From an uncultured delta proteobacterium (lineage in GTDB: Bacteria; Myxococcota_A; Polyangia; Polyangiales; Polyangiaceae), in contig CAWHQT010000020.1 in assembly GCA_963831555.1 (NCBI GenBank), forward strand, positions 12,099 to 76,098: DNA of 64,000 nt. Reading direction: 5' to 3'. The notes under the pieces are model-generated. The model was not told the origin of the DNA. It made no database searches and saw only the letters and a program-made list of their open reading frames with translations. The stretch's first letter is position 1. Each line of letters begins with the position of its first letter. The position numbers were made by a program, and so were the translations under genes. Of the stretch, positions 779 through 41,919 are shown piece after piece.

Positions 779-1876
<1,098 letters not shown>

Positions 1877-2734: not shown

Positions 2735-3795
2735 TACCAAGCTCCCTTGAGCGCCGCGCCGCCGAGAGTCGGCATGAGAACGAGGGTCGTGGCGTTGCCC
2801 GTTTCTCGGTTCTTCGTGCCCCCGGGGGCGGTCAGCCACAGCGCCACGCCCCCCACGATCGCGGCGCCGCCTACGACGAAAGCCACCGTGGCGATGTCCC
2901 CCGCGGAACGGGCGTCGGAACGTTCGTCGAGGCCCGGCTGCGAGCAAACATTTTGATTCGGCGCGGCTTCGCAGTCGTGATCGACCGAATCGTTGTACTT
3001 GTTCTTCGCGAGGACGAGGAAGCCCGCGCCAATCGCCACGCCCGCGACGCCGAGCCCCGACACGACCCAGCCCGCGATGCGTTGCGCGGATCCCGATCCT
3101 ACGGGGTTCGGGGCGGATGGGGTCGCGGGCTCTGCACCGACGGACGCCACCGGCGCGGCCGGACCGGCCGGAGCTCCCGGGGCCGGCGCCGTCGTGGCCG
3201 CCATTTCGACGGGAGCCGCCTCGAGCGGGGGCACCGTGGCGATGACCTGCGCTCCGTTCTGGGGGACCTCCACGACGGCGGACCAGTCCTTGTGGCCGGG
3301 AGCCGAGGCGCTGAGAGTGTGGCTTCCCGGGTCGATCGGGATGGCAATGGCCCACTCGGCGCGGTCCACGTTCACGCCGTCGCGGCGCACCTGGATGCCA
3401 TCGATGGGCGCGCCGACATTGATTGTCAGTCGCGCCAGCGTCGGCGCGAGGGAGTCCGCGTGCCGTTCGGCGGCCGTCACATAATCTTTGCGTCCGGCGG
3501 CGTTCGCGGAGCTCGCCGCCTCTTTGTACGTGGCCCACGCGGTGGCCGCACGGCCGAGTTTCTCCCAGCAATTAGCAAGGTTGAGGAGCGTCGCCGCGGA
3601 GGGGTCGAGCCGCTCGCTGTCGGCGAATTTCGGACACGCGTCGGCGTATTTCTTGTCCGCGACGAGCTTGCGCCCGTCTTCGAACAGCGCTTCCGCCGTC
3701 ACCTTGTCGCTCTCGGTCCCTTGGGCCTGGGCATCCGCGGTCGCAAGGGCAATTGTCGTCGCGAGCACCGCCGCCGAACAGTTGGCGAAACGCAT
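2734..3795 (-). CDS. Secreted membrane-anchored protein: signal peptide, helical TPR-like N-domain with conserved Cys, PEGA-like beta-sandwich, Ala/Pro linker, two C-terminal TM segments
   Basis: 353-aa ORF. The signal peptide ends ATADAQAQG. The beta-domain is LTINVGAPIDGIQVRRDGVNV...GSHTLSASAPGHKDW. TM1 is IAGWVVSGLGVAGVAIGAGFLVL and TM2 is VAFVVGGAAIVGGVALWL. The architecture matches the ORF at 24543..25511. Confidence 0.7.
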   Translation of the reverse strand: MRFANCSAAVLATTIALATADAQAQGTESDKVTAEALFEDGRKLVADKKYADACPKFADSERLDPSAATLLNLANCWEKLGRAATAWATYKEAASSANAAGRKDYVTAAERHADSLAPTLARLTINVGAPIDGIQVRRDGVNVDRAEWAIAIPIDPGSHTLSASAPGHKDWSAVVEVPQNGAQVIATVPPLEAAPVEMAATTAPAPGAPAGPAAPVASVGAEPATPSAPNPVGSGSAQRIAGWVVSGLGVAGVAIGAGFLVLAKNKYNDSVDHDCEAAPNQNVCSQPGLDERSDARSAGDIATVAFVVGGAAIVGGVALWLTAPGGTKNRETGNATTLVLMPTLGGAALKGAW

Positions 3796-8200: not shown

Positions 8201-8351
8201 GGATAACGAAGCGGGAAGCCGACCGCGCCTAACGTCTCATCGGACTGGGACGAACGCAGCGCACGTCGAAGGGAACGTTGCGAAGATGGAACGCGTTCGC
8301 CATGCCATCCATTGTAGGTCCGCACCCGGACTCTCTCCAAAGAGGAACCTG

Positions 8352-15370: not shown

Positions 15371-16708
15371 TCACATTCGGCTGATCAGCCAGCCGAGCGC
15401 GAGACCCACGGCGAGGGCGCACGCGACGAAGAGGACGACGACCTTGGGAGCGACGCCAAGCCGCGGGAGCGGCCTTCCGCTCGAGGCGAGTTCGCTCACC
15501 TCCTGTGTCTTGGAGGGCAACGTTCCCCCGAAGCGTTGGGGATCCACCAAGAGAACTTGCGGTACGGGGTCAATGACGACGGCCGCTTGCGGGCTCGCGA
15601 GCGTGCCGCCTTTTCCGCCGGCCGGTGGCTGCAATGGCCGCACGTCCAATTTCTCGTTGATGGTCGGGGGGATGGGCGAGTCCACGACGCCACGCCGGTT
15701 GACCGCCGAGGCGACGGGCACCTCGCGTCCCGCCTCCTCGGGCCCCGGGCGCGCGCCCTTCGTCGCTCTCGCCGACGCATCGGGGGTTGGGCTCGCGCGG
15801 GCACCCGCCCCCCGTTCCGCGCGAAGCGCGCCCGCCGGTAACGCCGCGGTGAGCGCTCGCGTCATTTCGTTCGCGGACTGAAACCGCTCCTCGCGGTTCT
15901 TCCGGAGAGCGCGTTCGAGGAACGGCGCGAGGGGTGCGAGCGCAGGATCGATACGATCGATGGGCTCCGGCTCGGTCGACAGCAGGGCGGCGAGACGGGC
16001 GTATTCCGTGGGAGCGGGGAACGCCACGCGCCCGCTGAGCATCTCGTAAAAGAGCACGCCGACACTCCAAAGGTCCGCCCGCTGGTCCACGTCACGCGCG
16101 CTCCGCGCCTGCTCGGGGCTCATGTACGCGGGGGTCCCGAGCAGTACCCCGGTGCGCGTTCGGTTCCCCATCCCGCCGGCCGCATCCATCACTTTGGCGA
16201 TGCCGAAATCGACCAGCTTGACCACGAACGCTCCGCGCGGGTCGCGGGTGAGGATGACGTTGTCCGGCTTGAGGTCGCGATGGACGATTCCGCTCTTGTG
16301 GGCGGCGGCGAGGGCCGCCAAAATCGCCTGAACGATGGGCGCGGCTTGCGCCACGGCAATGCGAGCCCCGTTTTGCATGTACGCGCCGAGCGGCACCCCG
16401 TCCAAGAGCTCCATGACGATGAAGGGGGACTCGTCCTCGGCGCGCGCGCACTCCATGACGCGCACGATGTTCGGGTGCACGAGGCGCATGCAGGTGCGTG
16501 CCTCTTCCAGAAACCGGGACCGAATATCTGGATCGCCGACGAATTCTTTTCGAAGCACTTTCACCGCCGCGTGGGTGCTCCCGTCTACGGCTTCCGCGGC
16601 GTAGACTTCCCCCATCCCTCCCTCTCCAAGCTTGCGCACGAGCCTCCATCGGCGCGCGAGGATCGCACCGACGACGGAGTTGGAGACACCTACGAGCGGA
16701 ACTACCAT
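15371..16708 (-). CDS. Ser/Thr protein kinase with a C-terminal TM anchor
   Basis: Motifs GEGGMGEVYAA, AVKVL, HRDLKPDN, DFG and AYMSPE are present. The C-terminal segment VVVLFVACALAVGLALGWLI is the anchor. Confidence 0.9.
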   Translation of the reverse strand: MVVPLVGVSNSVVGAILARRWRLVRKLGEGGMGEVYAAEAVDGSTHAAVKVLRKEFVGDPDIRSRFLEEARTCMRLVHPNIVRVMECARAEDESPFIVMELLDGVPLGAYMQNGARIAVAQAAPIVQAILAALAAAHKSGIVHRDLKPDNVILTRDPRGAFVVKLVDFGIAKVMDAAGGMGNRTRTGVLLGTPAYMSPEQARSARDVDQRADLWSVGVLFYEMLSGRVAFPAPTEYARLAALLSTEPEPIDRIDPALAPLAPFLERALRKNREERFQSANEMTRALTAALPAGALRAERGAGARASPTPDASARATKGARPGPEEAGREVPVASAVNRRGVVDSPIPPTINEKLDVRPLQPPAGGKGGTLASPQAAVVIDPVPQVLLVDPQRFGGTLPSKTQEVSELASSGRPLPRLGVAPKVVVLFVACALAVGLALGWLISRM

Positions 16709-22920: not shown

Positions 22921-24504
22921 ATGGCTGCACCTTTACAGCCCCCCGCCCCTCCCCGAATCGTCGGAAGGTACGTCCTTTATGGCGAGATTGCGTCGGGCGG
23001 TATGGCCACGGTGCATTTCGGGCGCCTTTTGGGCCCTGCGGGGTTTTCGCGCCCAGTGGCGATCAAGCGCCTCCACGCTCAGTTCGCGCGCGACCCGGAT
23101 TTCGTGAAGATGTTCTTCGACGAGGCGCGCCTCGCCGCCCGAATCGCGCATACGAACGTCGTCGCCACGCTCGATGTCGTGTCCGCGGACGACGAGGTGT
23201 TTCTGGTGATGGAATACGTGCCCGGGACCTCGCTCGCGCAGCTCGTCCGAACGGCCCGGCGTCGCGGCGAACCCATCGCGGCGCTGGTGGGCGTCGGCGT
23301 CGTGAGCGGAATGCTCCACGGGCTTCACGCGGCTCATGAGGCACGAAACGATCGGGGCGAGCGACTCGACATCGTGCACCGCGACGTATCGCCGCAAAAC
23401 GTTTTGGTGGGCACGGACGGGATCCCGCGTCTCCTGGACTTCGGCGTCGCCAAGGCATCTGGCCGGCTTCAAACGACGCGAGACGGTCAGCTCAAGGGCA
23501 AGCTCGCGTATATGGCCCCCGAGCAGGTGCGCGGCGAGCCCCTCACGCGCCGAACGGACGTCTACGCCGCTTCGGTCGTGCTTTGGGAGGTGCTGACCGG
23601 AAAGCGCCTCTTCTACGCCGAAAACGAGGCAACGGTTCTGTCGCGCGTGCTAACGGCAGAAGTCCTTCCGCCGAGCACCATCATCCCGGAGCTTCCCCGG
23701 TCTCTCGATCGCGTGGTTCTGCAGGGCCTCGAGCGCGATCCCGACAAGCGCTATCCCACCGCGCGCGCAATGGCGGCCGATCTCGAGGCGTGCATCGGCT
23801 TGGCGTCGGCCGCCGAGATCGCCGATTGGGTGGAACACACCGCGGCAGAGGAGTTGCGCGAGCGCGCCCTGCACATCGCGGAGATCGAGCGGTCAGCCGC
23901 TGAAGCCGCCGAGGGCGGCACGGGCGCGCCGGCCGTCACCCAGAGCGGGCCGGCGACGTTGGGTCGGCACCCCCAAGACTCCTCGGGTACCTGGGGCAAT
24001 TCCCTGCCGACCCGGAACGAACGGATTCATCACGAGCTGTCGCAGCTATCGAACCTGTCTCTGGCGCGCGCGAGCGAGCCGCCCGCGCGTCCGTCGCGCA
24101 AGCTGGTGTCGGCCCTCGTGGCTTTCGCGGGCGCGATCCTCGTCGTCGTCGCGCTGCTTCTCTTCGCGCAGGCACACTCCAAGGTCGAGTCGGGCCGGTT
24201 CGAGTCGACCCGGCTCGAGTCAGGCGCCGGTCTGCAGACGAGCCAGTTGCCGCCGCCCGTCAAAGTAACGACGCCGCCGTCCGTCGAGGTCCCGCCGAGT
24301 ACGAACGTCAACGATCTCCCGGTCGCATCGCCCCTGCCCGATGCTTCGATGTCGACCGCGACGCCCGGTCTACCGCCTCCGCGACCGCAATGGCGCGCGT
24401 CTCCGCAGCCTGTGTGGCCGGCGGCAACGGCAAGCGAAGAATGTAATCCGCCCTACACTGCAGACGCAAAGGGACACATTCACTTCAAACCGAATTGTAT
24501 GTGA
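22921..24504 (+). CDS. Ser/Thr protein kinase with a TM segment and a Cys-containing extracytoplasmic tail
   Basis: Motifs SGGMATVHFG, VAIKRL, HRDVSPQN, DFG and AYMAPE are present. The TM is LVSALVAFAGAILVVVALLLFA. The C-terminus is ECNPPYTADAKGHIHFKPNCM. Confidence 0.9.
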   Translation: MAAPLQPPAPPRIVGRYVLYGEIASGGMATVHFGRLLGPAGFSRPVAIKRLHAQFARDPDFVKMFFDEARLAARIAHTNVVATLDVVSADDEVFLVMEYVPGTSLAQLVRTARRRGEPIAALVGVGVVSGMLHGLHAAHEARNDRGERLDIVHRDVSPQNVLVGTDGIPRLLDFGVAKASGRLQTTRDGQLKGKLAYMAPEQVRGEPLTRRTDVYAASVVLWEVLTGKRLFYAENEATVLSRVLTAEVLPPSTIIPELPRSLDRVVLQGLERDPDKRYPTARAMAADLEACIGLASAAEIADWVEHTAAEELRERALHIAEIERSAAEAAEGGTGAPAVTQSGPATLGRHPQDSSGTWGNSLPTRNERIHHELSQLSNLSLARASEPPARPSRKLVSALVAFAGAILVVVALLLFAQAHSKVESGRFESTRLESGAGLQTSQLPPPVKVTTPPSVEVPPSTNVNDLPVASPLPDASMSTATPGLPPPRPQWRASPQPVWPAATASEECNPPYTADAKGHIHFKPNCM

Positions 24505-30839: not shown

Positions 30840-32702
30840 TCAAATTCGGAGCATAGCTTGGAAGTCAGCAACTAGGCGAATCATGGCGGCTTGGGCTCGG
30901 GCGGTCGCTCGCGCGACCTCTCCGTCGCCTCGGGTGTCTTGGTCGAGGCCGTCGCCTCGGGTGTCTTGGTCGAGGCCGTCGCCTCGGGTGTCTTGGTCGA
31001 GGCCGTCGCCTCGAACCTCCTCGTGCACGTCGAAGTAAAGCTTGGCCTTCGGCTCTGTACCGCTCGGGCGCGCGATGATGCGAGCGCCGGACGCGAGGTC
31101 GTACGCAAGAACGTTGCTCGGCGGCAGCGAGAGCATCTCGATTCGCGCCCCACGTCCGCTTGCCCGCACGGTGCGTCGGCCAACGGCGTAGTCGGTCACG
31201 GCGACGACTTCGTCCCTCCCAATCCTAGCCGGTGGGCATGCGCGGAGACCGTCCATCATGGCCCGGACCGCTGCGGTCCCGGTGATGCCCTTGCGAGTCA
31301 CGGTCGCTTGCGCGCTCGCGAAGACGCCCCAGCGACGCGCGATTCGGTCGAGGGCGTCCAGGATGGTCAGACCTCGCGCGCGAAGTACGGCGGCAACCTC
31401 CGCCACCAGAAGACCCGCCGAGATGCCGTCCTTGTCACGCACCGCACTCCCCACGCAATAGCCAAGGGCCTCCTCGTATCCGAACACGAAGTCGTAGCCC
31501 GCGTGCTCGAGCTCGATCGCGCGAGCGGCGATCCACTTGAAGCCGGTCAGCGTCTCTTCGTATCGGACGCCCAGGTCGGCCGCGATTCGTCCCAGCCAAG
31601 GCGACGACACGATCGACGCGACCACCGCGCGCGGCTTCTGCGTGGTGCTCTCGTCGGGACCCTTCTCGGTCAGCAGGTAGTGGCCCAAGAGCACGCCAAC
31701 CTGGTTGCCCGTGAGCTGCAAATACTCGCCGCGCCGTCCGGCCCAGGGAACGGCGACCGCAAGCCGGTCGGCGTCGGGGTCGTTGGCCAATACGAGGTCC
31801 GCACGGCTTGCGCGCGCCAACGCAAGCGCCAGGTCCATGGCACCCGGTTCTTCGGGATTCGGGAAAGCGACGGTCGGAAACGCGCCGTCTGGCTTTTGCT
31901 GCTCGCGAACGGTTGTCACGGCGGTGAACCCCGCCTGGTGAAGCGCCCGCCGCATGAGCGCGTCCCCCACGCCGTGAAGCGGCGTATACACGATACGCAA
32001 ATCGCGCTTTCCTTCTGTTGGGTGAACTCCCAACCCAACGATGGCATCGACGTAAGCTCGCTCCGCGTCGTCCGGTGGCGCGGCCAGAAGACCTTGCGAT
32101 ACGAGCGCATCCAGGCGGGGGCGCGGGATGCTCCGAGCCGGCGGTGCGCAGTTCATCGCCGCGGCCACACGGTCGTCGATGGGCGGGACGATCTGCGCCG
32201 CATTCTCCCAATAGACCTTGTAGCCGTTGTATTCAGGCGGGTTGTGGCTCGCGGTGATGACCACGCCGGCCGCGGCGCCCACGCGTTTCACGGTGAAGCC
32301 CACGAGAGGTGTGGGCGCCGGCACGCGAAAGAGCATGACCCGTAGCCCCAGAGCGGCGAGAATCGCGGCTACGTCCTCGGCGAACTCGGGGCTCATTCGT
32401 CGAGCGTCCGCCGCTACGACGACTCCGCGCTCCGCTGCCCTAGGCACCGCCTCCAGGAGCACGCGCCCGAGGCCCCACGTGGCCCTGGCGACCACGGCTC
32501 GGTTCATTCGGTTCGGGCCGGCCCCAAGCACGCCGCGCAACCCTGCCGTGCCGAACTCGAGGCCGCCCGCGAAGCGGTCTGCCAGGTCCGTCCCCGCGAG
32601 GTCCGGCTGACCGAGAACGGCCCGGAGCTCCTCTTGCGTCGTCGCGTCCGGGTCGTCCGCGATCCACTGCTCCGCGCGGGCGCGCAAATCCGCCAGGTTC
32701 AT
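30840..32702 (-). CDS. Alpha-D-phosphohexomutase (phosphoglucomutase/phosphomannomutase family) with a C-terminal repeat insertion
   Basis: The start is ATG 32702 (MNLADLRARAEQW). The active-site loop is TASHNPPEYNGYK. The metal loop is ANDPDADR. Domain 4 has ARPSGTEPKAKLY. RGDGLDQDT x3.5 precedes the last helix. Confidence 0.9.
   Translation of the reverse strand: MNLADLRARAEQWIADDPDATTQEELRAVLGQPDLAGTDLADRFAGGLEFGTAGLRGVLGAGPNRMNRAVVARATWGLGRVLLEAVPRAAERGVVVAADARRMSPEFAEDVAAILAALGLRVMLFRVPAPTPLVGFTVKRVGAAAGVVITASHNPPEYNGYKVYWENAAQIVPPIDDRVAAAMNCAPPARSIPRPRLDALVSQGLLAAPPDDAERAYVDAIVGLGVHPTEGKRDLRIVYTPLHGVGDALMRRALHQAGFTAVTTVREQQKPDGAFPTVAFPNPEEPGAMDLALALARASRADLVLANDPDADRLAVAVPWAGRRGEYLQLTGNQVGVLLGHYLLTEKGPDESTTQKPRAVVASIVSSPWLGRIAADLGVRYEETLTGFKWIAARAIELEHAGYDFVFGYEEALGYCVGSAVRDKDGISAGLLVAEVAAVLRARGLTILDALDRIARRWGVFASAQATVTRKGITGTAAVRAMMDGLRACPPARIGRDEVVAVTDYAVGRRTVRASGRGARIEMLSLPPSNVLAYDLASGARIIARPSGTEPKAKLYFDVHEEVRGDGLDQDTRGDGLDQDTRGDGLDQDTRGDGEVARATARAQAAMIRLVADFQAMLRI
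30924..31013. repeat. Perfect 27-bp tandem repeat, 3.3 copies, in frame inside the phosphohexomutase gene
   Basis: The unit gtcgcctcgggtgtcttggtcgaggcc occurs at 30924, 30951 and 30978, with a partial copy at 31005..31013. No mismatch is visible. Confidence 0.95.
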
Positions 32703-32712
32703 GGGCACGGGG

Positions 32713-33984
32713 TCAGGGATTGAAGTCCGGCGGAGTCGTGGGCGCTGGGGCAGTCGCGGGCGGAGGTGCGGGCGCACGCGCGGCCAGAGGGGCGTGGGCG
32801 GGCGCTGGCGGAGGCGCGATTGCGGGCGGTGGCGGCGGCGGCAGCTTGGGGGGCCCCCCGGATGCCGGCTTGTGGGCTGGCTTCGTGTCCTTCGTGTCCT
32901 TCGTGTCGACGTTTTCGTCCTTGGGCTTGGTGCGATCGGTCGTGCCAGCCACGACGGGCACGCTCGGCGCCGGTGCCAACGCGTCTCCTTTGGTCACGTC
33001 GAACGCGGGCGCGGTGTTCGGATCGCAACCCGGACCGAATCCTGCGGCGTCGAAGTCGCTCGCCACGCTTCCCGTTCGGATCGAGTTGCCTTTCAGGTCT
33101 TTCTCCGCCGCCTCGATGCGAACTTGGTGCTTTCCGGCGCGCGACGGCGAGCAATACGATAAGAGGTAAAAGCTTCTCGTGCGTCCCTCCACTTTGGCGC
33201 CGACTTCGTCGAACGCCTTCACGATGGCCGTCTTGTCCGCGGCCATGGCCGTTCCGTTCTTTCCGATGGCCGCGAGCTCCGATGGCTTGATCTCGGCCCC
33301 CAAGCCGATGGCAAAGACGTCGAACGGAGTATCCCGAATGCGCTTTTCCATCACCGCCGTAGGGACGCGATTGGCGCGATCGGTCCCATCGGTGAAAACG
33401 ACGAGAGTGCCGAATTTCAACGGCTGGGGTGCGCGACCGAGGGCGGTCTGCAATTGATCGAGGGCGCTCAGGATCGCTCCGTTCAAGTTGGTGCTCGGAT
33501 CTTTGGGCTTGAACGTCGCGAGCTCACTGACCCCGGCCTTGGCGCCGCCCGGCTGGTCGGTAAAGGCGGCCAGCGGGTGCAGGTCGGCTTCGCCGTCGAA
33601 GGCGTACATGCCGACCTTCTGTTGTTGCGCGACGCGATCGGTGAACGTGCCGACCGCTTGGACCAGAGTCTCGACCGCGCCGCTTTCGCTCACGCTACCG
33701 CTCATATCGACCAGCAGCAGCGTATAGTGAGCGGCGGCCACCTCCGGATTGAGGATCGTTTGCTTGCTCTCGTATTTCGAGACCAGCTGCGAATCTTCAT
33801 AGATGCGGAAATGATCCGCTGTCAGGCCGCCCACGGGGTCGCCCGATTCGTCTTGCACTTTGAAGTAGATGGCGACATTGCTCGGCCTTTGCTGTGCCGT
33901 CTTTACGGTCGACAGAGTCAGCTCGGCGCAGCCGGCGTTGAGGATGAGCAACGAACCAAGAACCAATGCGAACGCAATTCTCAC
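32713..33984 (-). CDS. vWA-domain lipoprotein with a Pro-rich C-terminal tail
   Basis: GTG start. MRIAFALVLGSLLILNAGC gives the lipobox. The MIDAS motif is LLLVDMSGSVS. VVFTDGTD is present. The tail contains DTKDTKDTK and poly-Pro. Confidence 0.85.
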   Translation of the reverse strand: MRIAFALVLGSLLILNAGCAELTLSTVKTAQQRPSNVAIYFKVQDESGDPVGGLTADHFRIYEDSQLVSKYESKQTILNPEVAAAHYTLLLVDMSGSVSESGAVETLVQAVGTFTDRVAQQQKVGMYAFDGEADLHPLAAFTDQPGGAKAGVSELATFKPKDPSTNLNGAILSALDQLQTALGRAPQPLKFGTLVVFTDGTDRANRVPTAVMEKRIRDTPFDVFAIGLGAEIKPSELAAIGKNGTAMAADKTAIVKAFDEVGAKVEGRTRSFYLLSYCSPSRAGKHQVRIEAAEKDLKGNSIRTGSVASDFDAAGFGPGCDPNTAPAFDVTKGDALAPAPSVPVVAGTTDRTKPKDENVDTKDTKDTKPAHKPASGGPPKLPPPPPPAIAPPPAPAHAPLAARAPAPPPATAPAPTTPPDFNP

Positions 33985-34139
33985 GGAGGTACTCTATCGC
34001 AGCTCGGCTCTCCACCGCGAAGGTCTGCGCATGACCCAATCCTTGGTGCGCGTTTTACCGTCCGCCTACCTCGCGCCTACCCCGTTAAAATGCGCGTGTT
34101 CGCGTTCGGCGACCGTTGGCGCGTTTCGCGCGCCGCCGT

Positions 34140-34715
34140 TCAGCGCTCGACCGCGAACGAATGAACGATGGCTTCGCAGGTCGATCGGTAGCGCTCGAAT
34201 GCGTCCGCGGAGACGGAGCAGGTGACGACGTACCCCGTGCCGCGGGAAGCCAGGTTGGCCTGCATCGTGCGGTACGGCACGTTCGCCGGTGCAATGGCCG
34301 ACCAACGCGATTGGACGACCAGGGTCGGGTCCCCATCGATGACTTCTTCGCTCGTGGTCTCGACAGAAGCGCGGGGGTCGTGGTGCAGCTCCTCGACGCT
34401 GGCTTTGGCGTACGCGTAGGATTCGCCGACGAACGGCTCAGTGACCACGTTGACGCTCGCGCGAAAATCGTCGACGGGCTGTGGATCGACGAACGACCAT
34501 ACGCCCGGCTCGCCGTGCTGCGGATCGTGCCACGTGGCGGGAGTGACCAGGCGCCAACTGCGGCCCGCCTGTTCGGCGAAGCCAGCCGGCAAGGGGGGCC
34601 TGACGAACGAGGCGACGTGCGGATGATCGCCGTGCTTGCAGCCCCCCGCGGGCGCGAGAGCCAGGAGCGCGGTCGCGAAGCAAGCGGCGGCGTCGAGTCG
34701 CTCCATTTGGCTCAT
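34140..34715 (-). CDS. Small lipoprotein, function unknown
   Basis: The start is the internal ATG at 34715 (MSQMERLDAAACFATALLALAPAGGC). It lies 1 nt after the PP2C stop. The 408-aa track ORF is an artefactual extension. Confidence 0.6.
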   Translation of the reverse strand: MSQMERLDAAACFATALLALAPAGGCKHGDHPHVASFVRPPLPAGFAEQAGRSWRLVTPATWHDPQHGEPGVWSFVDPQPVDDFRASVNVVTEPFVGESYAYAKASVEELHHDPRASVETTSEEVIDGDPTLVVQSRWSAIAPANVPYRTMQANLASRGTGYVVTCSVSADAFERYRSTCEAIVHSFAVER

Positions 34716-34716
34716 T

Positions 34717-36006
34717 CTATCGCTTCCGTCTCTTGGACTCCGTGGGACTCGCCTCGAGCGGAGCGATTGGCTCGCCGGCCGGCACGGCGGCCGAGGGGAG
34801 GACGACCGCCTCCGGGGCAAGCGTCGTCGGGCCGCCGCCAACCGCGGCATCGACCGAAAGGATACCGCTGGCCGGTTCGCTTCCGGCGTTCCTCTTGCCA
34901 CTTCGTTCCGCGAAATGAAGGAAAAGCACCGCGCCGAGAAGCGCGGCGGCGACGCATGCGAGCGCGAGGCCGACCGCCACCAACGCCGTGTGCGACCGGC
35001 TCGCGCTCGCCGGGGGTCCGGCAGCGGCCGGCTCGCTCTGCCATGGCGCCGAACCGGCCAACCCGACCCGTGGCCCCAAGGAGATCGGCGCGGCCCGCAG
35101 AGGTTCCGTGACGGGCACCGTTTTCGCGTTCGCTTCCGCGGGCGCCGGCAGAGCGGTCGCCTCGAGAATAGGGCCTTGTGGCGCGCTTGTTTGGGCGATC
35201 GTGGCGGCGACTGCCGCAGCGGCAGGCTGCGGCGAGATGGCGCTCTCTCTCGCGCGCAGCACGACCACCGTGATGTTGTCGTGACCGCCGCGGGCGTTCG
35301 CGAGATCGACCAGCTTGCCGACGGCCTGCGCCGCAGGTTCACCGGCGACGATCGCCAGGATTTCACGGTCCTCCACCAGATCGCTCAGCCCGTCCGAGCA
35401 AAGCACGAAGGCGTCTCCGGCCCGATGATGAACGGGAAACGCGCGCGCCTCGGGCTCGACTTCGGCCGCGATCCCGAGGGCGCGCGTGATCCGGTTTGCG
35501 TCCGGGTGACGGGCGGCCTGCTGCGGGGTGATGAGGCCTCGATCCACGAGCTCCTGAACGACGGAATGATCCCGAGTGACGCGGAAGATCTGTCCCTCGT
35601 GCACCAGGTAGGCGCGGCTATCGCCGACGTGCGCAATCTCCGTCCCGTGGGCGTGCAGGAGGGCGGCGACGAGGGTGCACCCGGGGCGACCGGCGCCCAT
35701 TTCCGCGGGGCGCATTGCGAAAACTCCGTGGTTGGCTTGCACGATGGCCGAGACCAGCACCTGACTGGGCGCGACTCCCTCGGCCGCGTGCTGGAAAGCG
35801 TCGAGGACCGTGGACACGGCTAGCGCTGCCGCTTCGCGTCCGGCGGCATGACCTCCCATTCCGTCGCACACGACGCAGAGGTGCCCGAATCGGGTCTTGC
35901 GACAGACGCACGCGTCTTCGTTGACTTGCTTGTCCGGGTCGCGCCCGGGGTCCGAGCGCTCGGCGTACTCTATTGCCGGCAGCACGGGCGACGGATGCGT
36001 TTCCAT
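34717..36006 (-). CDS. PP2C-family Ser/Thr phosphatase with a C-terminal TM segment
   Basis: NEDACV, VCDGMGGHAAG, VGDSRAY, LCSDGLSD and ARGGHDNITVVV are present. The TM is ALVAVGLALACVAAALLGAVLFL. Confidence 0.9.
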   Translation of the reverse strand: METHPSPVLPAIEYAERSDPGRDPDKQVNEDACVCRKTRFGHLCVVCDGMGGHAAGREAAALAVSTVLDAFQHAAEGVAPSQVLVSAIVQANHGVFAMRPAEMGAGRPGCTLVAALLHAHGTEIAHVGDSRAYLVHEGQIFRVTRDHSVVQELVDRGLITPQQAARHPDANRITRALGIAAEVEPEARAFPVHHRAGDAFVLCSDGLSDLVEDREILAIVAGEPAAQAVGKLVDLANARGGHDNITVVVLRARESAISPQPAAAAVAATIAQTSAPQGPILEATALPAPAEANAKTVPVTEPLRAAPISLGPRVGLAGSAPWQSEPAAAGPPASASRSHTALVAVGLALACVAAALLGAVLFLHFAERSGKRNAGSEPASGILSVDAAVGGGPTTLAPEAVVLPSAAVPAGEPIAPLEASPTESKRRKR

Positions 36007-36015
36007 GTCCCGCGG

Positions 36016-36411
36016 TCACATTTCGAGCTGCACGGTGAACTCGACCGGGCCAAAGCGCAGCGGCATTCCAGCCGGCACCGGCGTCCACACGCCTGGCGCG
36101 AGCCGCGCGCCGGATACCCAGGTCCCGTTGTTCGATGTCTCGTCGCGGACGATCAAATGCCCGCTATCGAAACGGAGCGTAGCGTGGACGCCGCTGACGC
36201 GTGGCTCGCTCAGGAAAATCGGGCATTGGGCCGGATCGCGACCGACGCGCACCTCCGCGCCCGCTCGCACCGTGTATTGCCCGACCACGCCTCGGAGCGT
36301 GGCGGCCGCGGCTCCATGGCCCGCAGGGGGGTACGCGACCTCTTGCGCGGCTCCCGGTCCGTTTGCCCTTGGATCCAATCGCGCGAAAGCCCGGGGTGCC
36401 GGAGCGCCCAC
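36016..36411 (-). CDS. FHA domain, either a separate small ORF or the frameshifted C-terminus of the upstream vWA protein
   Basis: VRVGRDPAQCPIFLSEPRVSGVHATLRFDSGHLIVRDETSNNGTWVSG is a classic FHA core. The only candidate start is GTG 36411, which directly abuts AGGAGG with no spacer. The ORF overlaps the 3' 248 nt of the upstream ORF. Confidence 0.6.
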   Translation of the reverse strand: MGAPAPRAFARLDPRANGPGAAQEVAYPPAGHGAAAATLRGVVGQYTVRAGAEVRVGRDPAQCPIFLSEPRVSGVHATLRFDSGHLIVRDETSNNGTWVSGARLAPGVWTPVPAGMPLRFGPVEFTVQLEM

Positions 36412-38515
36412 CTCCTCTCGTCACATCGCCGGCGATTGGTTGCCCGCACGAGAAACACACGGCAGGCTGGCCCGAGGTTGCCATCGTATTCATCCCGCAC
36501 GCGGGGCACTGCACCTCCACCACCGGTGCGTTCACACCGTGGGCTTCGGACGTCCCGGAGGATGGCTGCAGAGGCGCCATGGGCAGCATGGCACCCAAAC
36601 CAAGCGGCGTTGCGGCTGGGGCGTGAGGGCGTCCAATGACCGCAGCCGTGGCGCCAAAGGGGTCGGCCGCGGGCTGCATCCCGTAGCCCCCCGGGGGAGG
36701 ATGCGGCTGCGCGTAGCCGCCCGGCGGAGGCCCATAACCGCCGGGACCTCCGTAGCCCGGCGCGGGCGGCGGTGGTGTCCCTCCGCCGCGCTTGCGTCCT
36801 CCGCCGCGGAGGAGGACCAGGACCAGGAGCACGATGACCACGAGGAGCCCCGCGATGCCCGCGATCAGAATGACCGAAATTGGTTTCTTCGTCGCCTTGA
36901 GCGAGAGGATGCCCTTCTCGTCCACGGCGGACGCGCGATGGGCTTTGTTGTCATAGATGACGACGTGCGAGACGGTGTTGTCGCCCGTCCCGTCGAGGAC
37001 CTTGTCGTCATCGGGAACCGTGAACGTGGCGTATCCATCGCCCGTGGCGACGGCCGTGCCGAGCATGTGTTCGGCCTGAAGTTGCTGCATGGCCTTCTTT
37101 GCAACGTCCGGATCCCGGGTGTTCGACGCCTCGGGCTTCGTCCCGGCCGGCACGAAGTACGACTCCGCGCGCTCCTTGTCGCCGCTCCAACAGAAATCGC
37201 CGTACACCGTGAACTGGCCGCCCGGATAGAGTGGATTGTCCTGCGCCGCTTTCACGGTTTTCGCGGCGTCGATGTCGAGCGGCCATTCGGTGGGGTCCAT
37301 CCCGATCGGGACCTCCTTGAACGTGCCGTCGGGCGCGATCGCGGGGTGCGTGTTCTCGAACACGAGATTGAACGTTTGCTCGACGCTCGGATTGATGCAG
37401 CTCATGTTCCAGTGAATGAGCCACATCGCATTGAAGCGGGCGCGCACGAGGCCGATGATCGTCTTGGCTTTGGGCGCGCCCATGCCGTCTTGAACGATGT
37501 CGAAGAACCCGCCAATCTCGGGATTCGCCAGCGACTGCATGAACTGCGCTTCGTTGTTCCGATAGATGTTCTCGGTGAGGCTTGACGCGTTGGGAAGCCA
37601 GATCGAGATGACCGGAAGCGGCGTCTTCGGCAGTGACGTGTTGTCGTCCGGGAAGCGGCCTTTGTCGAGGTACTGGTGGAACACGTCCGCGCTCGGGCTG
37701 GCGCTCTCCGGGTCGCCGCGCCCGGCCCCGTTCGAAAGAACGACCATGGCCTGGTGCAGAGGCACGGTGTCGGGCTGGTCGGAGTTGCCGAGCGACCCGA
37801 AACCGTCTTGCGTCATCGTCTTGATTTCGGAAAAGAGCGCGCGGTCGCGACCGTGCGAGGGGCTCGTGGCTTTGAAGTCGTTCAGGGCATTGCCCAACTC
37901 CGCGCGCTGCTTGAACGTTTTCCACTTCGTGTCGCGAACGACCTGGACGTCGTCGAAAAACATCAAGTCCATCAGGTCGTTGGGCTGCATTTGTTCGATG
38001 AACTCGTGGGCGATGGCGCGGGCGTCCCCGAAGCGAGACCCCATTGCGCTGGAGGAGTCGATCGCGATGAGCCATGCGGTACCGACGTTGGGCCGATTCT
38101 GCGCCTTGCCCCATTGGGTCTTGTCGGCAAACTTGGTGAGTGTGTCCTCGCCGGCGACCTTGACGAGCAAGTGCGCGTTTGCTTCAGGGAAGGGGAACGG
38201 CTCCCAGAGGGCGCCGGGCTTCTCAAGTTGCTCGCTCCAGCATCCGAGGGTGGCAGCGGCCGAGACCCCGGCGCACGGTTGGAGCGCGTCGCTCAAGCGC
38301 TTGAACTGCACGACCTCGATGACCGTGGTGAGCAGCGGCTTGCCGTCCTTGAGACCGGTGCGTGGGTCGATTCGGAGGATGTGCGCTTCGGGTGCCGCGA
38401 GCGCACCGCGTCCGCTCGTCATCGAGCAGAGCAGGGACGCGAGCGCAAAAAAAAGGACCCGAAAGGACCGGCGTGCGGCCATCACGAGAGACCTCGTCAG
38501 GGGCATGGGTTTCAC
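36164..38515 (-). CDS. Transmembrane vWA protein: signal peptide, periplasmic vWA/MIDAS domain plus a large beta region, one TM, a Gly/Pro-rich linker, and a zinc ribbon
   Basis: The MIDAS motif is LIAIDSSSAMG. The TM is ILIAGIAGLLVVIVLLVLVLL. PPGGYG repeats are present. The zinc ribbon is CPACG...CFSCG. After ...PIAGDVTRGG the frame turns into Arg/Gly nonsense, while the FHA frame opens. The GTG start overlaps the upstream stop as GTGA. Confidence 0.75.
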   Translation of the reverse strand: MKPMPLTRSLVMAARRSFRVLFFALASLLCSMTSGRGALAAPEAHILRIDPRTGLKDGKPLLTTVIEVVQFKRLSDALQPCAGVSAAATLGCWSEQLEKPGALWEPFPFPEANAHLLVKVAGEDTLTKFADKTQWGKAQNRPNVGTAWLIAIDSSSAMGSRFGDARAIAHEFIEQMQPNDLMDLMFFDDVQVVRDTKWKTFKQRAELGNALNDFKATSPSHGRDRALFSEIKTMTQDGFGSLGNSDQPDTVPLHQAMVVLSNGAGRGDPESASPSADVFHQYLDKGRFPDDNTSLPKTPLPVISIWLPNASSLTENIYRNNEAQFMQSLANPEIGGFFDIVQDGMGAPKAKTIIGLVRARFNAMWLIHWNMSCINPSVEQTFNLVFENTHPAIAPDGTFKEVPIGMDPTEWPLDIDAAKTVKAAQDNPLYPGGQFTVYGDFCWSGDKERAESYFVPAGTKPEASNTRDPDVAKKAMQQLQAEHMLGTAVATGDGYATFTVPDDDKVLDGTGDNTVSHVVIYDNKAHRASAVDEKGILSLKATKKPISVILIAGIAGLLVVIVLLVLVLLRGGGRKRGGGTPPPPAPGYGGPGGYGPPPGGYAQPHPPPGGYGMQPAADPFGATAAVIGRPHAPAATPLGLGAMLPMAPLQPSSGTSEAHGVNAPVVEVQCPACGMNTMATSGQPAVCFSCGQPIAGDVTRGGGRSGTPGFRAIGSKGKRTGSRARGRVPPCGPWSRGRHAPRRGRAIHGASGRGGARRSRSGPMPDFPERATRQRRPRYAPFR

Positions 38516-39489
38516 ACGCGGCCGATCACTTTGACGATCGTCGTGAAGCCGCCGAAGCGCACGCGGTCCCCATCGCGGAGCTCGCGGCGTCCCCCGTATC
38601 CAATGTGCTCGTCATTGACGAACGTCCCATTGGTGGATCCGGTATCTTCGACGCCGACCGATCCGTTGGTCGCGTCCACCACCAGAGCCGCGTGCCGAGA
38701 CGAGATCGTCGGGTCTTGAAGCGGGATGTCGAGACCGTCCCCCGTCCCGAATCGACCGATCGTGTGCCGTCCGGCGGTCAGGGGCCAAAAGTCACCGTTC
38801 GAGTTCGTCCCATACGCCACGAGGAACCCACGGAGCGTGCGCGCTGGCGCCGCGTCGCGGCCCGGATCGTCGCCGAACGAAGGTTGCGGGGCTGGCTGCG
38901 CGGGGGGCGGCGCGTACACCGGTTGCACGGGAAAGGGCGGGAGCGGCTGTTGTGGGGAGAAGCCGGGCTGCATCGCGGGCGCGCCGAACGCGGACGCATA
39001 GGCGGCTTGATTCGGCGCCGGAGAGTAGCCGCCCTGGGCGGGGAGCGCGCCGCGCTGCGAAGGAGGCGCGGTCGCGTAACCCCCGTGCGCTCGAGGTGCT
39101 GGCCCGTATCCCTGCAGGGCCGGCGCTTGGCCGTAGGCGCCTCCGTAGGGGTCGTTCGCGAACTGCATCTGATCGAGCGCAATCGGATGACCTTGCGCGC
39201 AGTAGCTGCCGCCCGGTGCGATCTCGTGGCCCGCTTGGCATCGCGCAGGGGCCGTGGGCGGAGCGTAAGCGGGAGCCGGGGCGGGCGGATAGGCAGCAGC
39301 TGGCGTCGGTGCGTAGGGGGCGGGCGCGGCCCTCTCCTTCTCCGAGGCGAAGGTGGGCGGCGCTACCGGTGGGGCGTATCCGGCCCCCGCTTGGGGCGGA
39401 GCCGAGCCGCGCACGATAGGGGACCCGCAGACATTGCAAAACTTGTCGGCCGGTTTGACCACGGTGCCGCATTGGGAGCATGCGCTCAT
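38512..39489 (-). CDS. Zinc-ribbon plus FHA domain protein with a Pro/Ala/Tyr-rich linker
   Basis: The zinc ribbon is MSACSQCGTVVKPADKFCNVCG, and a second Cys/His pair follows. The FHA core is HTIGRFGTGDGLDIPLQDPTISSRHAALVVD...VEDTGSTNGTFVN. Confidence 0.85.
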   Translation of the reverse strand: MSACSQCGTVVKPADKFCNVCGSPIVRGSAPPQAGAGYAPPVAPPTFASEKERAAPAPYAPTPAAAYPPAPAPAYAPPTAPARCQAGHEIAPGGSYCAQGHPIALDQMQFANDPYGGAYGQAPALQGYGPAPRAHGGYATAPPSQRGALPAQGGYSPAPNQAAYASAFGAPAMQPGFSPQQPLPPFPVQPVYAPPPAQPAPQPSFGDDPGRDAAPARTLRGFLVAYGTNSNGDFWPLTAGRHTIGRFGTGDGLDIPLQDPTISSRHAALVVDATNGSVGVEDTGSTNGTFVNDEHIGYGGRRELRDGDRVRFGGFTTIVKVIGRV

Positions 39490-39611
39490 GGTGTCGCCCT
39501 CGATGCCTTCTGTGCGTCCGCCGACGAGTCGGGCGGGTGCACGAAACAGAGCATAGCGAATTGTTTATGAAAAATGCGAGGTCGACGCACGCGCAACGCT
39601 CCTCGATGGGG

Positions 39612-41009
39612 TCACACGCTCATAGCCCGCTTCGCCGAGAGGGACATCACCACGCGCAACACCTCGCGCACCGGCACTCCATGAGCCCGTGCGGCCTCCG
39701 CGCAAGCGTCAAACTCCGGCTTCATTTGTGGCGGCCCGAATGGCCCCCCGGCGATCTTCACGGCAATGAGTCCGAACGGCGTTTCCACATACTCGATCGT
39801 TCGGGGCCGTTCGATACGGCGGACATCGTAGCGACGGACCCCGAGGCTCGTCGTTTCGCGGAGCATCGTGCTCGCGAGCTCATCGGCCCGGTCTCGCGCC
39901 GCCAGGGCGGAAATCACCAACGCCGGCCGGCCTTTCTTCATCGTGATGGGCGTCGCCCACGCGTCCAGCGCGCCCGCAACGAGGAGCGCCTCGATCCAAT
40001 GAGCCGCGAGCTCGCCCGTGGCGTCGTCGATGTTCGCTTCGAGCACCGTGTGCGTTGGGGGGCCGTCCTCGGCCAGCAGCAACGCCTCACCCGCGCGCCG
40101 ACGCTCGACGTCCGGCACGACCCCCAGCACCGCCCGCAGCACGTTTGGCCGATCGCTCAAACTGGCGTGCCCCGCGCCCCACCCGGTTCGCTCCGGCGCC
40201 ATGGCCGGCCAGCGCAGTGAACCGGTCGCGTGCGCGCCCACGATGGCGGCGCCCGTCGGCGTGACGAATTCGAAGTCGAGCCCTCCGTCGTAGGTTGCGA
40301 GCCCGGCGAGACATTCAACCGTGGCGGGTGCCGGCAGGGGCAGCGTCCCATGGGCCGCGCGGACGAAACCTCGGCCCATCGGCAGAGGGGACACCCAGAG
40401 CTCGGCGTCCAGGTGGTCGAGCGCGGCCGCGCTTCCGACCACGTCCACGATGGCGTCGATCGCTCCGACCTCGTGAAAATGAACGTCGTCGATCGCCGTT
40501 CGGTGCACCTTCGCTTCCGCGTTCGCGAGACGCAGAAACGTGCGTTGCGCTCGTGCCTTCACCGCGTCGGACAGCCGCGATTGCGCCAGCATGGCGCGAA
40601 TGCTGGCGTAGGTTCGCGTTGGCTGCGGCGCGCTCACGCGCACGTCGAACGCCGTCGCTACGATCCCGCTCTGCACGCGCGTTCCGAACGTAACGTCGAA
40701 GTCCGTGATCGGCAGCGCCGCGATCGCGTCGCCAACGACCCCGCGCGGAACGCCCAAGTCGACGAGCGCGGCGATGATCATGTCCCCCGCCAAGCCGCTT
40801 GGTGCATCGAAGAAGAGCACCCGCCCGCCTCGCGGACCGGGCGGACCGTCTTCGCAGCTCGACCGACCGACGCTCGGGTCACGAACGCGCGAGCGCGGGT
40901 CCGGGCCGTACGCGGGATCGTACTCGCCGTCGCGCGCCTCTTCGTGGCCGGCGTGTTCATGGCGGAGGCCCAAATCTCCGTCGCCGTGTTCGTGTCCCTC
41001 ATGCCCCAT
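39612..41009 (-). CDS. larC: LarC-type nickel insertion protein (DUF111 family) with a His-rich N-terminal extension
   Basis: ATG 41009 lies after GGAGA. MGHEGHEHGDGDLGLRHEHAGHEE is followed by FDAPSGLAGDMIIAALVDLG...HFHEVGAIDAIVDVVG...MKKGRPA, the typical LarC/DUF111 motifs. Confidence 0.8.
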   Translation of the reverse strand: MGHEGHEHGDGDLGLRHEHAGHEEARDGEYDPAYGPDPRSRVRDPSVGRSSCEDGPPGPRGGRVLFFDAPSGLAGDMIIAALVDLGVPRGVVGDAIAALPITDFDVTFGTRVQSGIVATAFDVRVSAPQPTRTYASIRAMLAQSRLSDAVKARAQRTFLRLANAEAKVHRTAIDDVHFHEVGAIDAIVDVVGSAAALDHLDAELWVSPLPMGRGFVRAAHGTLPLPAPATVECLAGLATYDGGLDFEFVTPTGAAIVGAHATGSLRWPAMAPERTGWGAGHASLSDRPNVLRAVLGVVPDVERRRAGEALLLAEDGPPTHTVLEANIDDATGELAAHWIEALLVAGALDAWATPITMKKGRPALVISALAARDRADELASTMLRETTSLGVRRYDVRRIERPRTIEYVETPFGLIAVKIAGGPFGPPQMKPEFDACAEAARAHGVPVREVLRVVMSLSAKRAMSV

Positions 41010-41082
41010 GACGTCTCCGGTTCGAAGCTCCCGAGATCCCGTCGGCCCGGGCGCATGTGAAGGCGGCGCGCTCGGTACCGAT

Positions 41083-41844
41083 TCAATACCGATCGCGCAT
41101 GCGCAGGATTCGTGCGGCCGCGTAGGCGGCCCCGAAGCCGTTGTCGATGTTGCACACGACCACCCCGGCCGCGCAGCTCGACAGCATCCCCGCCAGGGCC
41201 GCCAAGCCTCCGAAGCTGACGCCGTACCCGATGGACGTCGGCACGGCGATGACGGGCCCGGCCACCATACCACCAACGACACTCGGGAGTGCCCCTTCCA
41301 TGCCCGCGACCACGACGACGACGGCCGCGCGTTCGAACACTTCTCGCTTGTGGAGCAGCCGATGGATTCCTGCGACGCCCACGTCGTAGATGCGTTCGAC
41401 TCCGGCGCCCAGCATGCGCAACGTTTCGGCACACTCCTCCGCAACGGGAAGGTCTCCTGTCCCCGCGCTGACGAGCGCGACCGGCTGCCCTCCGAGCGGC
41501 GCAATCGACCGATGCTCGATCGTCGCGATTCGCGCGAGGTCTACGTACCGGAGATCCGGCAGCTCCGCACGAATCTCGCTCGCCTTCTCGGCGTCGAGCC
41601 GGGTGACCAGCACGTTCTGGCCTGTGCGCGAAAGTTCGCGTGCAATTCCGATGATCTGCGCTGCCGTCTTGCCGTGCCCAAAGATGACTTCGGGTGCGCC
41701 CTGCCGGAGCGCCCGATGATGGTCGACGGTCGCGTAGCCGAGGTCGGCGTAAGGCAGATCACGCAGTTCAGTCACGGCATCGTCGATGCTGGTGGCTCCG
41801 CGCCGCACGCCTTCGAGGAGCTCGCGGAGTCTTTCAGGATGCAT
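41083..41844 (-). CDS. larB: LarB-type pyridinium-3,5-biscarboxylic acid mononucleotide synthase (PurE-like)
   Basis: DHHRALRQGAPEVIFGHGKT...VALVSAGTGDLPVAEEC...VVVAGMEGALPSVVGG...VIAVPTSIGYG is the typical LarB layout. The start is ATG 41844, or possibly the upstream non-ATG start at 41868. Confidence 0.8.
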   Translation of the reverse strand: MHPERLRELLEGVRRGATSIDDAVTELRDLPYADLGYATVDHHRALRQGAPEVIFGHGKTAAQIIGIARELSRTGQNVLVTRLDAEKASEIRAELPDLRYVDLARIATIEHRSIAPLGGQPVALVSAGTGDLPVAEECAETLRMLGAGVERIYDVGVAGIHRLLHKREVFERAAVVVVVAGMEGALPSVVGGMVAGPVIAVPTSIGYGVSFGGLAALAGMLSSCAAGVVVCNIDNGFGAAYAAARILRMRDRY

Positions 41845-41919
41845 CAGGTCCGCGGCGAACCCTAGCACCGGGGAAGGCCGGGGCCTACACTCGCAGGCTC
41901 CGACGGACTCGGACGCCTC

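Follow-up and report, generated by a model that had tools for sequence, protein, structure and literature searches.

Accounts of Ser/Thr signalling in bacteria usually start from the kinase, and the locus examined here raises the question of what an operon may do that carries FHA, vWA and PP2C proteins and no kinase. The locus lies in a 64,000-nt stretch of contig CAWHQT010000020.1 (assembly GCA_963831555.1, positions 12,099 to 76,098) from an uncultured member of the Polyangiaceae, referred to below as the window, where the sequence and the list of open reading frames (ORFs) place five closely packed ORFs on the minus strand at 32713-39489. We read this operon, with moderate confidence, as a membrane-spanning phospho-threonine (pThr) 'reader and eraser' module that would rely on kinases encoded elsewhere. 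Judged from the sequences of related loci, its conserved unit is a trio of an FHA protein, a receptor-like membrane protein and a PP2C phosphatase, specific to the Polyangia and conserved within them.

Following the direction of transcription, the operon begins with a soluble protein of 325 aa (38512-39489, minus strand, as are all features described for the operon), in which a zinc ribbon and a Pfam FHA domain are joined by a Pro-Ala-Tyr-rich linker; we refer to it as the ZnR-FHA protein. Next comes the receptor-like type-I membrane protein (36164-38515), assembled as a 783-aa ORF whose last ~75 residues are out of frame; its FHA tail is found in the +1 frame at 36016-36411, with the FHA domain itself at about 36049-36252 (Pfam FHA, 2.4e-13). 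The gene for a PP2C Ser/Thr phosphatase (34717-36006, 429 aa; Pfam PP2C_2, 5e-18) starts 9 nt past the stop of this FHA frame, a single nucleotide separates its own stop from the first ATG of a small lipoprotein (34140-34715, 191 aa), and after a gap of 155 nt a vWA lipoprotein with a Pro-rich C-terminal tail (32713-33984, 423 aa; Pfam VWA) completes the series. The ORFs and the three gaps agree with a first-pass annotation that had been made from the sequence alone. The 'GTGA overlap' which that annotation had described between the receptor and ZnR-FHA genes was not borne out: receptor homologues begin at the position of M12 of the window protein (ATG 38482, with GAGG 9 nt upstream), which makes the overlap a probable artefact of extending the ORF. 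The true start is probably this ATG, which would leave a gap of ~29 nt between the two genes.

Conservation of the locus was assessed in one genome per GTDB species, with locus content determined by tblastn of the window proteins and with denominators that differ by feature (63-83 loci). The receptor ectodomain was found in 272 species genomes, of which the best 80 were all from Polyangia-type Myxococcota, a few short contigs being evidently mis-binned; carriers include Labilithrix luteola DSM 27648, Sorangium cellulosum So ce26, two more Sorangium genomes and Byssovorax. Of 75 loci, 69 carry an FHA gene immediately upstream of the receptor gene; the ectodomain continues into an FHA tail in 64 of 66 loci, and PP2C starts 0-84 nt past that tail in 50 of 63. 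Conservation of gene order, which the first pass had named as a check, thus holds for the FHA / receptor / PP2C trio across the Polyangia, and not for all five genes: the pair of small lipoprotein and vWA lipoprotein occurs in the closest clade only (~12 loci), with the vWA lipoprotein alone in two more. The absence of a kinase from the operon was upheld as well. Five Hanks-kinase-like regions lie elsewhere in the window (836-1642, 4414-5244, 6322-7131, 15845-16663 and 22957-23793), the nearest of them 8.9 kb away, with no kinase closer than this to the operon within the window. Across 83 loci, no more than 14 have any Hanks kinase in the surrounding ±8 kb; its position differs from locus to locus, and this is compatible with the background kinase density of these genomes.

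A search with the frame-corrected receptor sequence yielded 1040 relatives, nearly all of them labelled 'FHA domain-containing' or 'hypothetical' and derived from metagenome-assembled genomes (MAGs) of Polyangiaceae. The typical relative has 800-850 aa with the FHA domain in frame, and by this design the window protein would comprise roughly 830 aa. The features follow one another in the alignment as a signal-like N-terminus, ~500 conserved residues, a hydrophobic helix, RGGG(R/K), a linker, a zinc ribbon and FHA. In the homologues the N-terminus is hydrophobic and runs into AxA / APEAH, and in the window it forms a predicted Sec-type signal peptide (38396-38482, receptor residues 12-40) with cleavage after A-L-A. 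The single transmembrane (TM) helix ISVILIAGIAGLLVVIVLLVLVLL, followed by RGGGRKRGGG, is located at 36809-36880 and appears as a helix at residues 511-533 of the structural model described below. Since the signal peptide, the TM helix and four Cys that are invariant in 146 homologues occur together, and basic residues follow the helix, the ectodomain is predicted to be periplasmic and the protein to be oriented N-out/C-in, with its tail in the cytoplasm.

On the cytoplasmic side, a disordered, low-complexity linker rich in Pro, Gly and Tyr connects the TM helix to a four-Cys zinc ribbon (CPAC...CFSC, 36443-36508), whose Cys columns show almost no variation within the close clade; the ribbon is missing from some distant clades. 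The FHA domain has conserved GR, SxxH and NNGT motifs and intact pThr-binding residues. The architecture proposed in the first pass, with a zinc ribbon and FHA module inside the membrane, therefore holds, except that the frame of the FHA tail is shifted by +1 against that of the 783-aa ORF. Pfam gave no match anywhere in this ORF, ectodomain included, and no Pkinase match in the large protein, whose cytoplasmic part consists of zinc ribbon and FHA. T623 in the linker, a candidate phospho-acceptor Thr, is conserved in only 55%. In some distant clades (L038, ~9800-9830, and L057, ~9820-9836), the reading frame for ectodomain and TM helix ends at a common CCAAACCCTCCGTAG ahead of the zinc ribbon, which suggests a natural fission into an ectodomain-TM gene and a ZnR-FHA gene.

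The ectodomain had been described as a vWA domain with an adhesion site that depends on a metal ion (MIDAS), and the two halves of this claim fared differently. A phmmer search of the ectodomain against 1.84 billion representatives recovered its own family only (213 clusters at 50% identity) and no generic vWA proteins; with Pfam silent too, the vWA assignment rests on structure prediction. An AlphaFold2 (AF2) model of the ectodomain and TM helix, built from a 27-sequence alignment, reached a predicted local distance difference test score (pLDDT) of 86 and a predicted TM-score (pTM) of 0.81, and shows an N-terminal β-sandwich (38114-38389), an α/β domain (37406-38080), a second, C-terminal β-domain (36893-37381) and the TM helix. 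In Foldseek comparisons with the PDB, the top match was 8s05_A, ArnB of the ArnA-ArnB complex ('archaeal ortholog of the Sec23/24 core'; E 1.5e-7, 520 columns), but global TM-scores of 0.24/0.33 and a root-mean-square deviation (rmsd) of 18 Å are low, so the likeness to ArnB is one of domain composition and not of rigid arrangement. Dozens of integrin I and vWF A domains also matched the ectodomain (E 1e-6 to 1e-4, TMt 0.6-0.74). At the level of the model, the vWA (Rossmann-like α/β) fold of the periplasmic region is confirmed.

The 'DSSSAMG' segment, in contrast, is not a conserved MIDAS. MIDAS-like segments are present in the window protein (DSSSA, 38039-38062; LSNG, 37721-37738), but across 146 homologues D153 is the sole invariant MIDAS residue: position 155 has Ser (56%) or Ala (37%) for the most part, position 157 holds Gly, Ser or Ala, Arg or Asp stands in place of the loop Thr, and 86% have Asn for the β4 Asp. 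By these columns the receptor MIDAS is degenerate and does not look functional.

In the ZnR-FHA protein, a linker of ~200 residues rich in Pro, Ala and Tyr separates an N-terminal CxxC...CxxC zinc ribbon from a C-terminal FHA domain (Pfam FHA at residues 243-313, E 2e-17), which carries GR, SxxH and NG(T) pThr-binding motifs; the ribbon is matched by Zn_Ribbon_1 at residues 4-24 (E 8e-5), with the zinc-ribbon matches below the cut-off. A PDB sequence search with this protein gave generic FHA matches only, ArnA not being among them. Its linker contains a second possible metal-binding motif, CxxxH...CxxxH (RCQAGHEIAPGGSYCAQGH), at residues 83-101 (39190-39245). The phosphatase scores above the Pfam cut-offs for both PP2C_2 (65.8 bits) and PP2C (49.6 bits) and reaches 213.7 bits against a cut-off of 230 for NCBIfam Stp1/IreP. 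Its catalytic motifs NED, DGMGGH, GDSR, SDG and GGHDN are all present, and a C-terminal TM helix (34912-34992) precedes a short extracytoplasmic tail. PP2C is apparently anchored to the membrane, as the first-pass annotation had it; the anchor is in its tail, and the enzyme is apparently active.

Both lipoproteins have a lipobox Cys that is invariant or nearly so across their orthologues. The small lipoprotein, whose conserved start is probably M4 at 34706, has two further invariant Cys, C166 and C180, which fits a periplasmic location. It gave no Pfam match; none of its 292 relatives is named, and one homologue has a precomputed PF01789 match. An AF2 model of only moderate confidence (core pLDDT 70-86, overall 62) resembles EagT6, PsbP and DcrB in Foldseek (E 2e-6 to 1e-5, TMt 0.6-0.67), pointing to the PsbP/DcrB/DUF1795 (Eag chaperone)/Mog1 fold. 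The vWA lipoprotein exceeds the gathering cut-offs of Pfam VWA (1.1e-6) and VWA_2 (2e-6), and a PDB sequence search with it gave no match. Its MIDAS, unlike that of the receptor, is complete, with D93-x-S95-x-S97, T165 and D199 invariant or nearly so in 13 orthologues, in agreement with the first-pass description of a second vWA protein with a MIDAS. A comparison of the two vWA domains by hhalign aligned the β1 and β4 strands sensibly (E 1.3e-3), but with a probability of 18%, and we rejected close paralogy of the two proteins.

The company of the receptor gene differs from clade to clade. One sub-lineage (L014, L084-L087 and L003) has no PP2C gene, and the two lipoprotein genes, the small one and then that for the vWA lipoprotein, come straight after the receptor gene; twelve more distant loci also have no adjacent PP2C. 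In 24 loci of more distant clades, including Sorangium and Labilithrix, a gene for an Rv1747-like FHA-FHA-ABC exporter is found 1-5 kb downstream on the same strand (L069:11436-14570, with three matched FHA stretches; L080:12773-15898; and 22 further loci); no such gene adjoins the operon in the window.

In the reader-and-eraser module that we propose, one or more Hanks kinases encoded elsewhere would phosphorylate Thr on the tails or on a partner. The two FHA domains would read these pThr marks and assemble a membrane-proximal complex, and PP2C would erase the marks and reset the complex. Because the ectodomain has no functional-looking MIDAS, it probably acts by protein-protein contact, and not by metal-mediated ligand binding, and it would couple the complex to a partner in the envelope. 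Likely partners in the closest clade would be the MIDAS-competent vWA lipoprotein and the PsbP-like small lipoprotein, and in other clades the neighbouring FHA-FHA-ABC exporter would be the likely output. The signal may travel either outside-in or inside-out; the 'outside-in' direction given in the first pass was overstated, being pure inference on a matter that the sequence does not decide.

Several points weigh against this explanation. The kinase and the FHA ligands enter it as inferred parts only, and the receptor topology is drawn from sequence features. PP2C is missing from 13 of 63 loci and is thus not obligatory, while the lipoproteins, being restricted to one clade, cannot be core partners. 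The ectodomain superposes poorly on ArnB, as the global scores given above indicate. Finally, the FHA tail of the window receptor is out of frame, behind an internal motif that reads GGT GGG CGC and has no slippery G-run, and this copy of the gene could be defective or mis-assembled.

This last point deserves closer attention, as the frame change is not confined to the window. A Shine-Dalgarno (SD)-like motif, GAGAGGAGGTGGGCGC (36404-36419; family consensus AAGGAGGTGGGGG, encoding KGGGG), is found inside the window receptor gene. The +1 frame is open from exactly this motif to the FHA stop and takes in a GTG of the motif (36409-36411), and the FHA sequence is fully intact and as conserved as in intact genes. 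Across the related loci, the FHA tail is in another frame in 14 of 66. Twenty-six loci have a zinc ribbon followed by GG(A/G)GGTGGG, and among them the tail is in the +1 frame in nine and in the -1 frame in none; the nine (L011, L014, L021, L032, L070 and L084-L087) all follow the motif AAGGAGGTGGG(G). Of 19 close-clade loci, 17 keep the motif codons GGA GGT GGG (KGGG(G)), whereas Gly codons over the whole gene are 54% GGC, 25% GGG, 13% GGA and 8.5% GGT, and fifteen other conserved Gly positions vary freely in codon. On these counts the motif is conserved at the nucleotide level. The resulting sequence AAGGAGGTG is perfectly complementary to the conserved 3' terminus of 16S rRNA.

One group of sequences, here called lineage A, keeps the +1 layout (L014/L084/L085, L086 and L087, together with proteins P0098 and P0102), and its members L014, L084 and L085 are nearly identical sequences from three independent assemblies, the source samples being peat and palsa. 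The motif region of this lineage reads GAAGGGAGGTGGGGACGCG..., with a common junction between GGG and SPGF. Between FHA regions of lineage A, 31-40 differences fall at the third codon position versus 1-6 at each of the first and second, amounting in the FHA frame to 32-39 synonymous versus 6-9 non-synonymous codon changes in 96 codons, and the indels of the linker keep the FHA frame (125, 129 and 137 codons). The third-position excess, the synonymous excess and the frame-keeping indels together indicate that the +1 FHA frame has been translated and kept under selection ever since the divergence of these sequences. Another pair, L032 and L070, both +1, also has a third-position excess (37/22/66 differences by codon position). 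In addition, the conserved PGFP motif is encoded by CCCCCGGGTTTCCCC, which reads PGFP in both frames.

From these patterns, a +1 ribosomal shift or a restart at the conserved SD-like AAGGAGGUGGG is the probable source of the FHA tail in lineage A. Two mechanisms fit and are equally open. In the first, a prfB-like +1 frameshift would take place, with the SD-like sequence directly upstream of GGG G and tRNA-Gly re-pairing in the +1 frame. The +1 site of prfB (RF2) is AGGGGG-UAU-CUU U, with an SD-like sequence directly upstream of the P-site codon that re-pairs (PMC3711429), and short spacing between SD sequence and P site promotes +1 shifts according to references cited there; GGAGGU-GGG G in the receptor gene would likewise place an SD-like sequence directly before the codon re-pairing in +1. 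Against the analogy, neither an in-frame stop nor any other codon that is obviously slow occupies the A site, and unlike prfB, most members of the receptor family carry the downstream domain in frame 0. In the second mechanism, translation would initiate at the GUG of the motif, the sole conserved start candidate in the +1 frame, although the spacing is very short. Two further candidates were discarded. A dnaX-like design, in which an immediate +1 stop in intact genes would give a defined short isoform, was rejected since the +1 frame closes after 11-83 codons, the recurrent closure at 15 codons being a by-product of Leu/Met-Asn codons. Slippage on a C-run in lineage A was rejected since L087 has CCCCA at this place and the C-run is not the conserved element.

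For the window itself, the competing explanation is that the receptor gene is a pseudogene or an assembly error, and that its frame break has no biological meaning in this genome. We regard this as possible, though short of an even chance. The tblastn high-scoring pairs of intact homologues change frame between the PGF motif and GPGAAQ (~36355-36390), one candidate site being the AAA run at 36362-36364, and this similarity-based junction lies downstream of the PGF motif, a position other than the one in the maintained lineage; the window motif is not slippery, and the tail of the deposited protein P0001 is simply out of frame as well. Such an explanation has to contend with the facts that all nine of the frame breaks after the motif are +1 and none is -1, that the +1 frame is open exactly from the motif to the stop of an intact and conserved FHA tail, and that a sister lineage holds the same +1 layout under purifying selection. 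The broader alternative, that the family consists of kinase-less TM receptors whose FHA tail is attached, or made separately, by recoding at AAGGAGGUGGG(G), through either a programmed +1 frameshift or a GUG restart, and that some lineages, possibly including the window organism, would make forms with and without the FHA tail, is put forward here tentatively, as doubtful for now.

How the proposed module relates to described systems was considered for design, fold and gene order in turn. Closest in design is the threonine-phosphorylation pathway of type VI secretion (T6SS; PpkA/PppA/Fha1, with TagQRST as lipoprotein or periplasmic accessories, in Pseudomonas aeruginosa and Agrobacterium), in which the vWA domain of PpkA is extracellular and PpkA has PppA, a PP2C, and Fha1 as partners (PMC3224232). 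Like that pathway, the operon combines a single-pass membrane protein bearing an extracellular vWA domain with a cytoplasmic FHA reader, a PP2C eraser and periplasmic or lipoprotein accessories. The receptor differs from PpkA in that its cytoplasmic part is a ZnR-FHA module instead of a kinase domain, in its N-out/C-in orientation, and in its ~500-aa ectodomain with β-sandwich domains and a degenerate MIDAS; nor are kinase or T6SS genes found nearby.

Closest in fold and domain pairing is the archaellum-regulatory module ArnA/ArnB of Sulfolobus acidocaldarius (kinases ArnC/D, phosphatase PP2A), where ArnA, a ZnF-FHA protein, binds ArnB, with vWA and β-sandwich domains, in a phosphorylation-dependent manner (PMC12852372; PMC6509490). 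The ZnR-FHA protein of the window and its counterparts in L069 and L002 share the ZnR-linker-FHA architecture of ArnA, a likeness of architecture only, with no ArnA-specific sequence match beyond generic FHA; the modelled receptor ectodomain resembles ArnB in combining vWA and β-sandwich, within the limits of superposition noted above; and in the module, as in ArnA/ArnB, complex formation would depend on phosphorylation, with the kinases fused to neither partner. ArnB, however, is cytoplasmic with a complete MIDAS, whereas the ArnB-like part of the receptor is predicted to be periplasmic, has a degenerate MIDAS and continues, by way of a TM helix, into an ArnA-like ZnR-FHA tail, and the phosphatase is PP2C, not PP2A. 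Since they are on opposite sides of the membrane, the zinc ribbon and FHA domain of the receptor cannot contact its vWA domain as ArnA does ArnB.

In gene order, the operon resembles the actinobacterial fhaA-fhaB(fipA)-pstP-rodA-pbpA-pknA-pknB cluster, with genes for a soluble FHA protein, an FHA protein of the membrane and a PP2C anchored by a TM helix in succession, and it might accordingly encode a scaffold for growth or division of the cell envelope of the mycobacterial FhaA/FhaB(FipA)/PstP type, whose FHA proteins would recruit wall-synthesis or export machinery under kinases acting in trans, with the vWA ectodomain as an add-on. This explanation overlaps with the reader-and-eraser module and differs from it mainly in output. 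Besides gene order, it draws on the NCBIfam result that FhaB_Rv0019c is the best similarity of both FHA domains (E 1.7e-9 and 9.5e-8), on the housekeeping neighbourhood of the operon (by Pfam, the flanks hold PGM, LarB/LarC, ADH, UbiA and PheS/T), and on the Rv1747-like FHA-ABC exporter that adjoins the locus in other clades. Yet the scores against the FhaB/FipA equivalog NF049868 (37.9 and 32.2 bits) are far below the cut-off of 125, rodA, pbpA, pknA and pknB were not found in the window flanks or the listed homologous loci, and the ~500-aa ectodomain has no counterpart in FhaB. On balance we consider such a scaffold rather unlikely.

The abundance of integrin I-domain and vWF A structures, which form the bulk of the fold matches, together with the complete MIDAS of the vWA lipoprotein, suggests another role, in adhesion or motility. 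The vWA ectodomain and the vWA lipoprotein would then bind surface or matrix ligands in the style of integrin I-domains or the gliding adhesin CglB, and the ZnR/FHA tails would link to machinery as do GltJ and GltG in the focal adhesions of Myxococcus. There is a myxobacterial precedent, as GltG has FHA domains, GltJ a zinc ribbon, and CglB is a vWA lipoprotein in Myxococcus (PMC11761067). This role is improbable given the degenerate MIDAS of the receptor, the limitation of the vWA lipoprotein to one clade, the lack of a TonB-like domain, the lack of Agl/Glt genes (none by Pfam either in the flanks of the operon or across three homologous neighbourhoods whose genes were listed in full) and an NCBIfam GltG score of 22.6 bits against a cut-off of 650.

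Membership of an already named system, whether T6SS threonine phosphorylation, Bat/MoxR aerotolerance or a TerY-P (vWA/PP2C/kinase) triad, is suggested by the common domain vocabulary of vWA, FHA and PP2C and by weak TIGR03354 (TagH/Fha1) matches (26.9 bits, E 4e-6, and 25.3 bits, far below the cut-off of 120.25), and was rejected on gene context as effectively refuted, in line with the first pass, because the housekeeping flanks and the same three neighbourhoods contain no T6SS core, MoxR AAA+, DUF58 or kinase genes. PADLOC gave only weak PP2C similarity for the operon, which is thus not a known defence system. In Deinococcus radiodurans, DRA0331-0334 unites vWA, Ser/Thr protein kinase, FHA and PP2C in one operon (bioRxiv 10.64898/2026.01.23.701218), and vWA-PP2C-kinase triads of the 'TerY-P' type have been described (eLife PMC7159879). 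Those systems always include a kinase, and their vWA protein is separate and apparently cytoplasmic; the receptor vWA domain is by contrast extracytoplasmic, fused to FHA and without a kinase. From its domains and context, the operon belongs to none of these systems and is an uncharacterised kinase-less module of the FHA/vWA/PP2C signalling kind. The first-pass statement that it could not be assigned to a described system holds as to membership, and needs the qualification that PpkA/PppA/Fha1, ArnA/ArnB, fhaA-fhaB-pstP and DRA0331-0334 are close in design. For the core trio, none of the three outcomes that the first pass had listed as refuting it was observed.

Around the operon, LarC and a probable LarB are encoded upstream on the same strand (39612-41868). 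LarB (AIRC-type) and LarC (Ni-insertion) are genes of nickel-pincer cofactor synthesis; LarC is upstream in many related loci, and the two genes are upstream in most related loci down to ~50% identity. Their linkage to the operon may be either functional or plain synteny. Downstream, a phosphoglucomutase-like ORF of the PGM/PMM family (30840-32777, minus strand) contains the nine residues RGDGLDQDT in a perfect threefold tandem repeat in its C-terminal part (~30920-31020). Its annotated start overlaps the end of the vWA lipoprotein gene, and the likely true start is an internal Met near 32702; a phosphoglucomutase gene was not kept downstream in any related locus examined. With five Hanks-type kinase-like regions per 64 kb, the window indicates a high kinase density of the source genome. 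Two ORFs elsewhere in the window (8286-10838, plus strand, 850 aa, and 1916-3571, minus strand, 551 aa) had no Pfam match at E ≤ 1e-5 and may be spurious in this high-GC sequence or represent uncharacterised genes. A scan of 32500-39800 for promoters and terminators gave counts not above those of shuffled controls, and an Rfam scan of 32000-40000 gave no match at E ≤ 1.

What these results would mean for the Polyangia lies first in the make-up of the module, which has two FHA readers, a PP2C eraser and a receptor-like ectodomain, and no writer. As such, it offers an entry point to how the large kinase families of myxobacteria connect to the envelope, and it is testable in cultivable Sorangium and Labilithrix, which carry intact copies. 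The fusion of an ArnB/Sec23-type vWA and β-sandwich part across the membrane to an ArnA-type ZnR-FHA tail would represent an ancient pairing in a new topology. The newest element of the finding is the FHA tail that is kept in the +1 frame after an internal SD-like motif, with selection in at least one lineage (A); lying behind a motif perfectly complementary to the anti-SD sequence, it is a candidate for a new recoding or internal-initiation signal. 'Frameshifted' genes of this type in MAGs should accordingly not be annotated automatically as truncated. If the recoding reading is true, it would provide a new bacterial recoding site outside prfB, in a signalling protein, at which ArnA-like and ArnB-like halves would be joined across a membrane.

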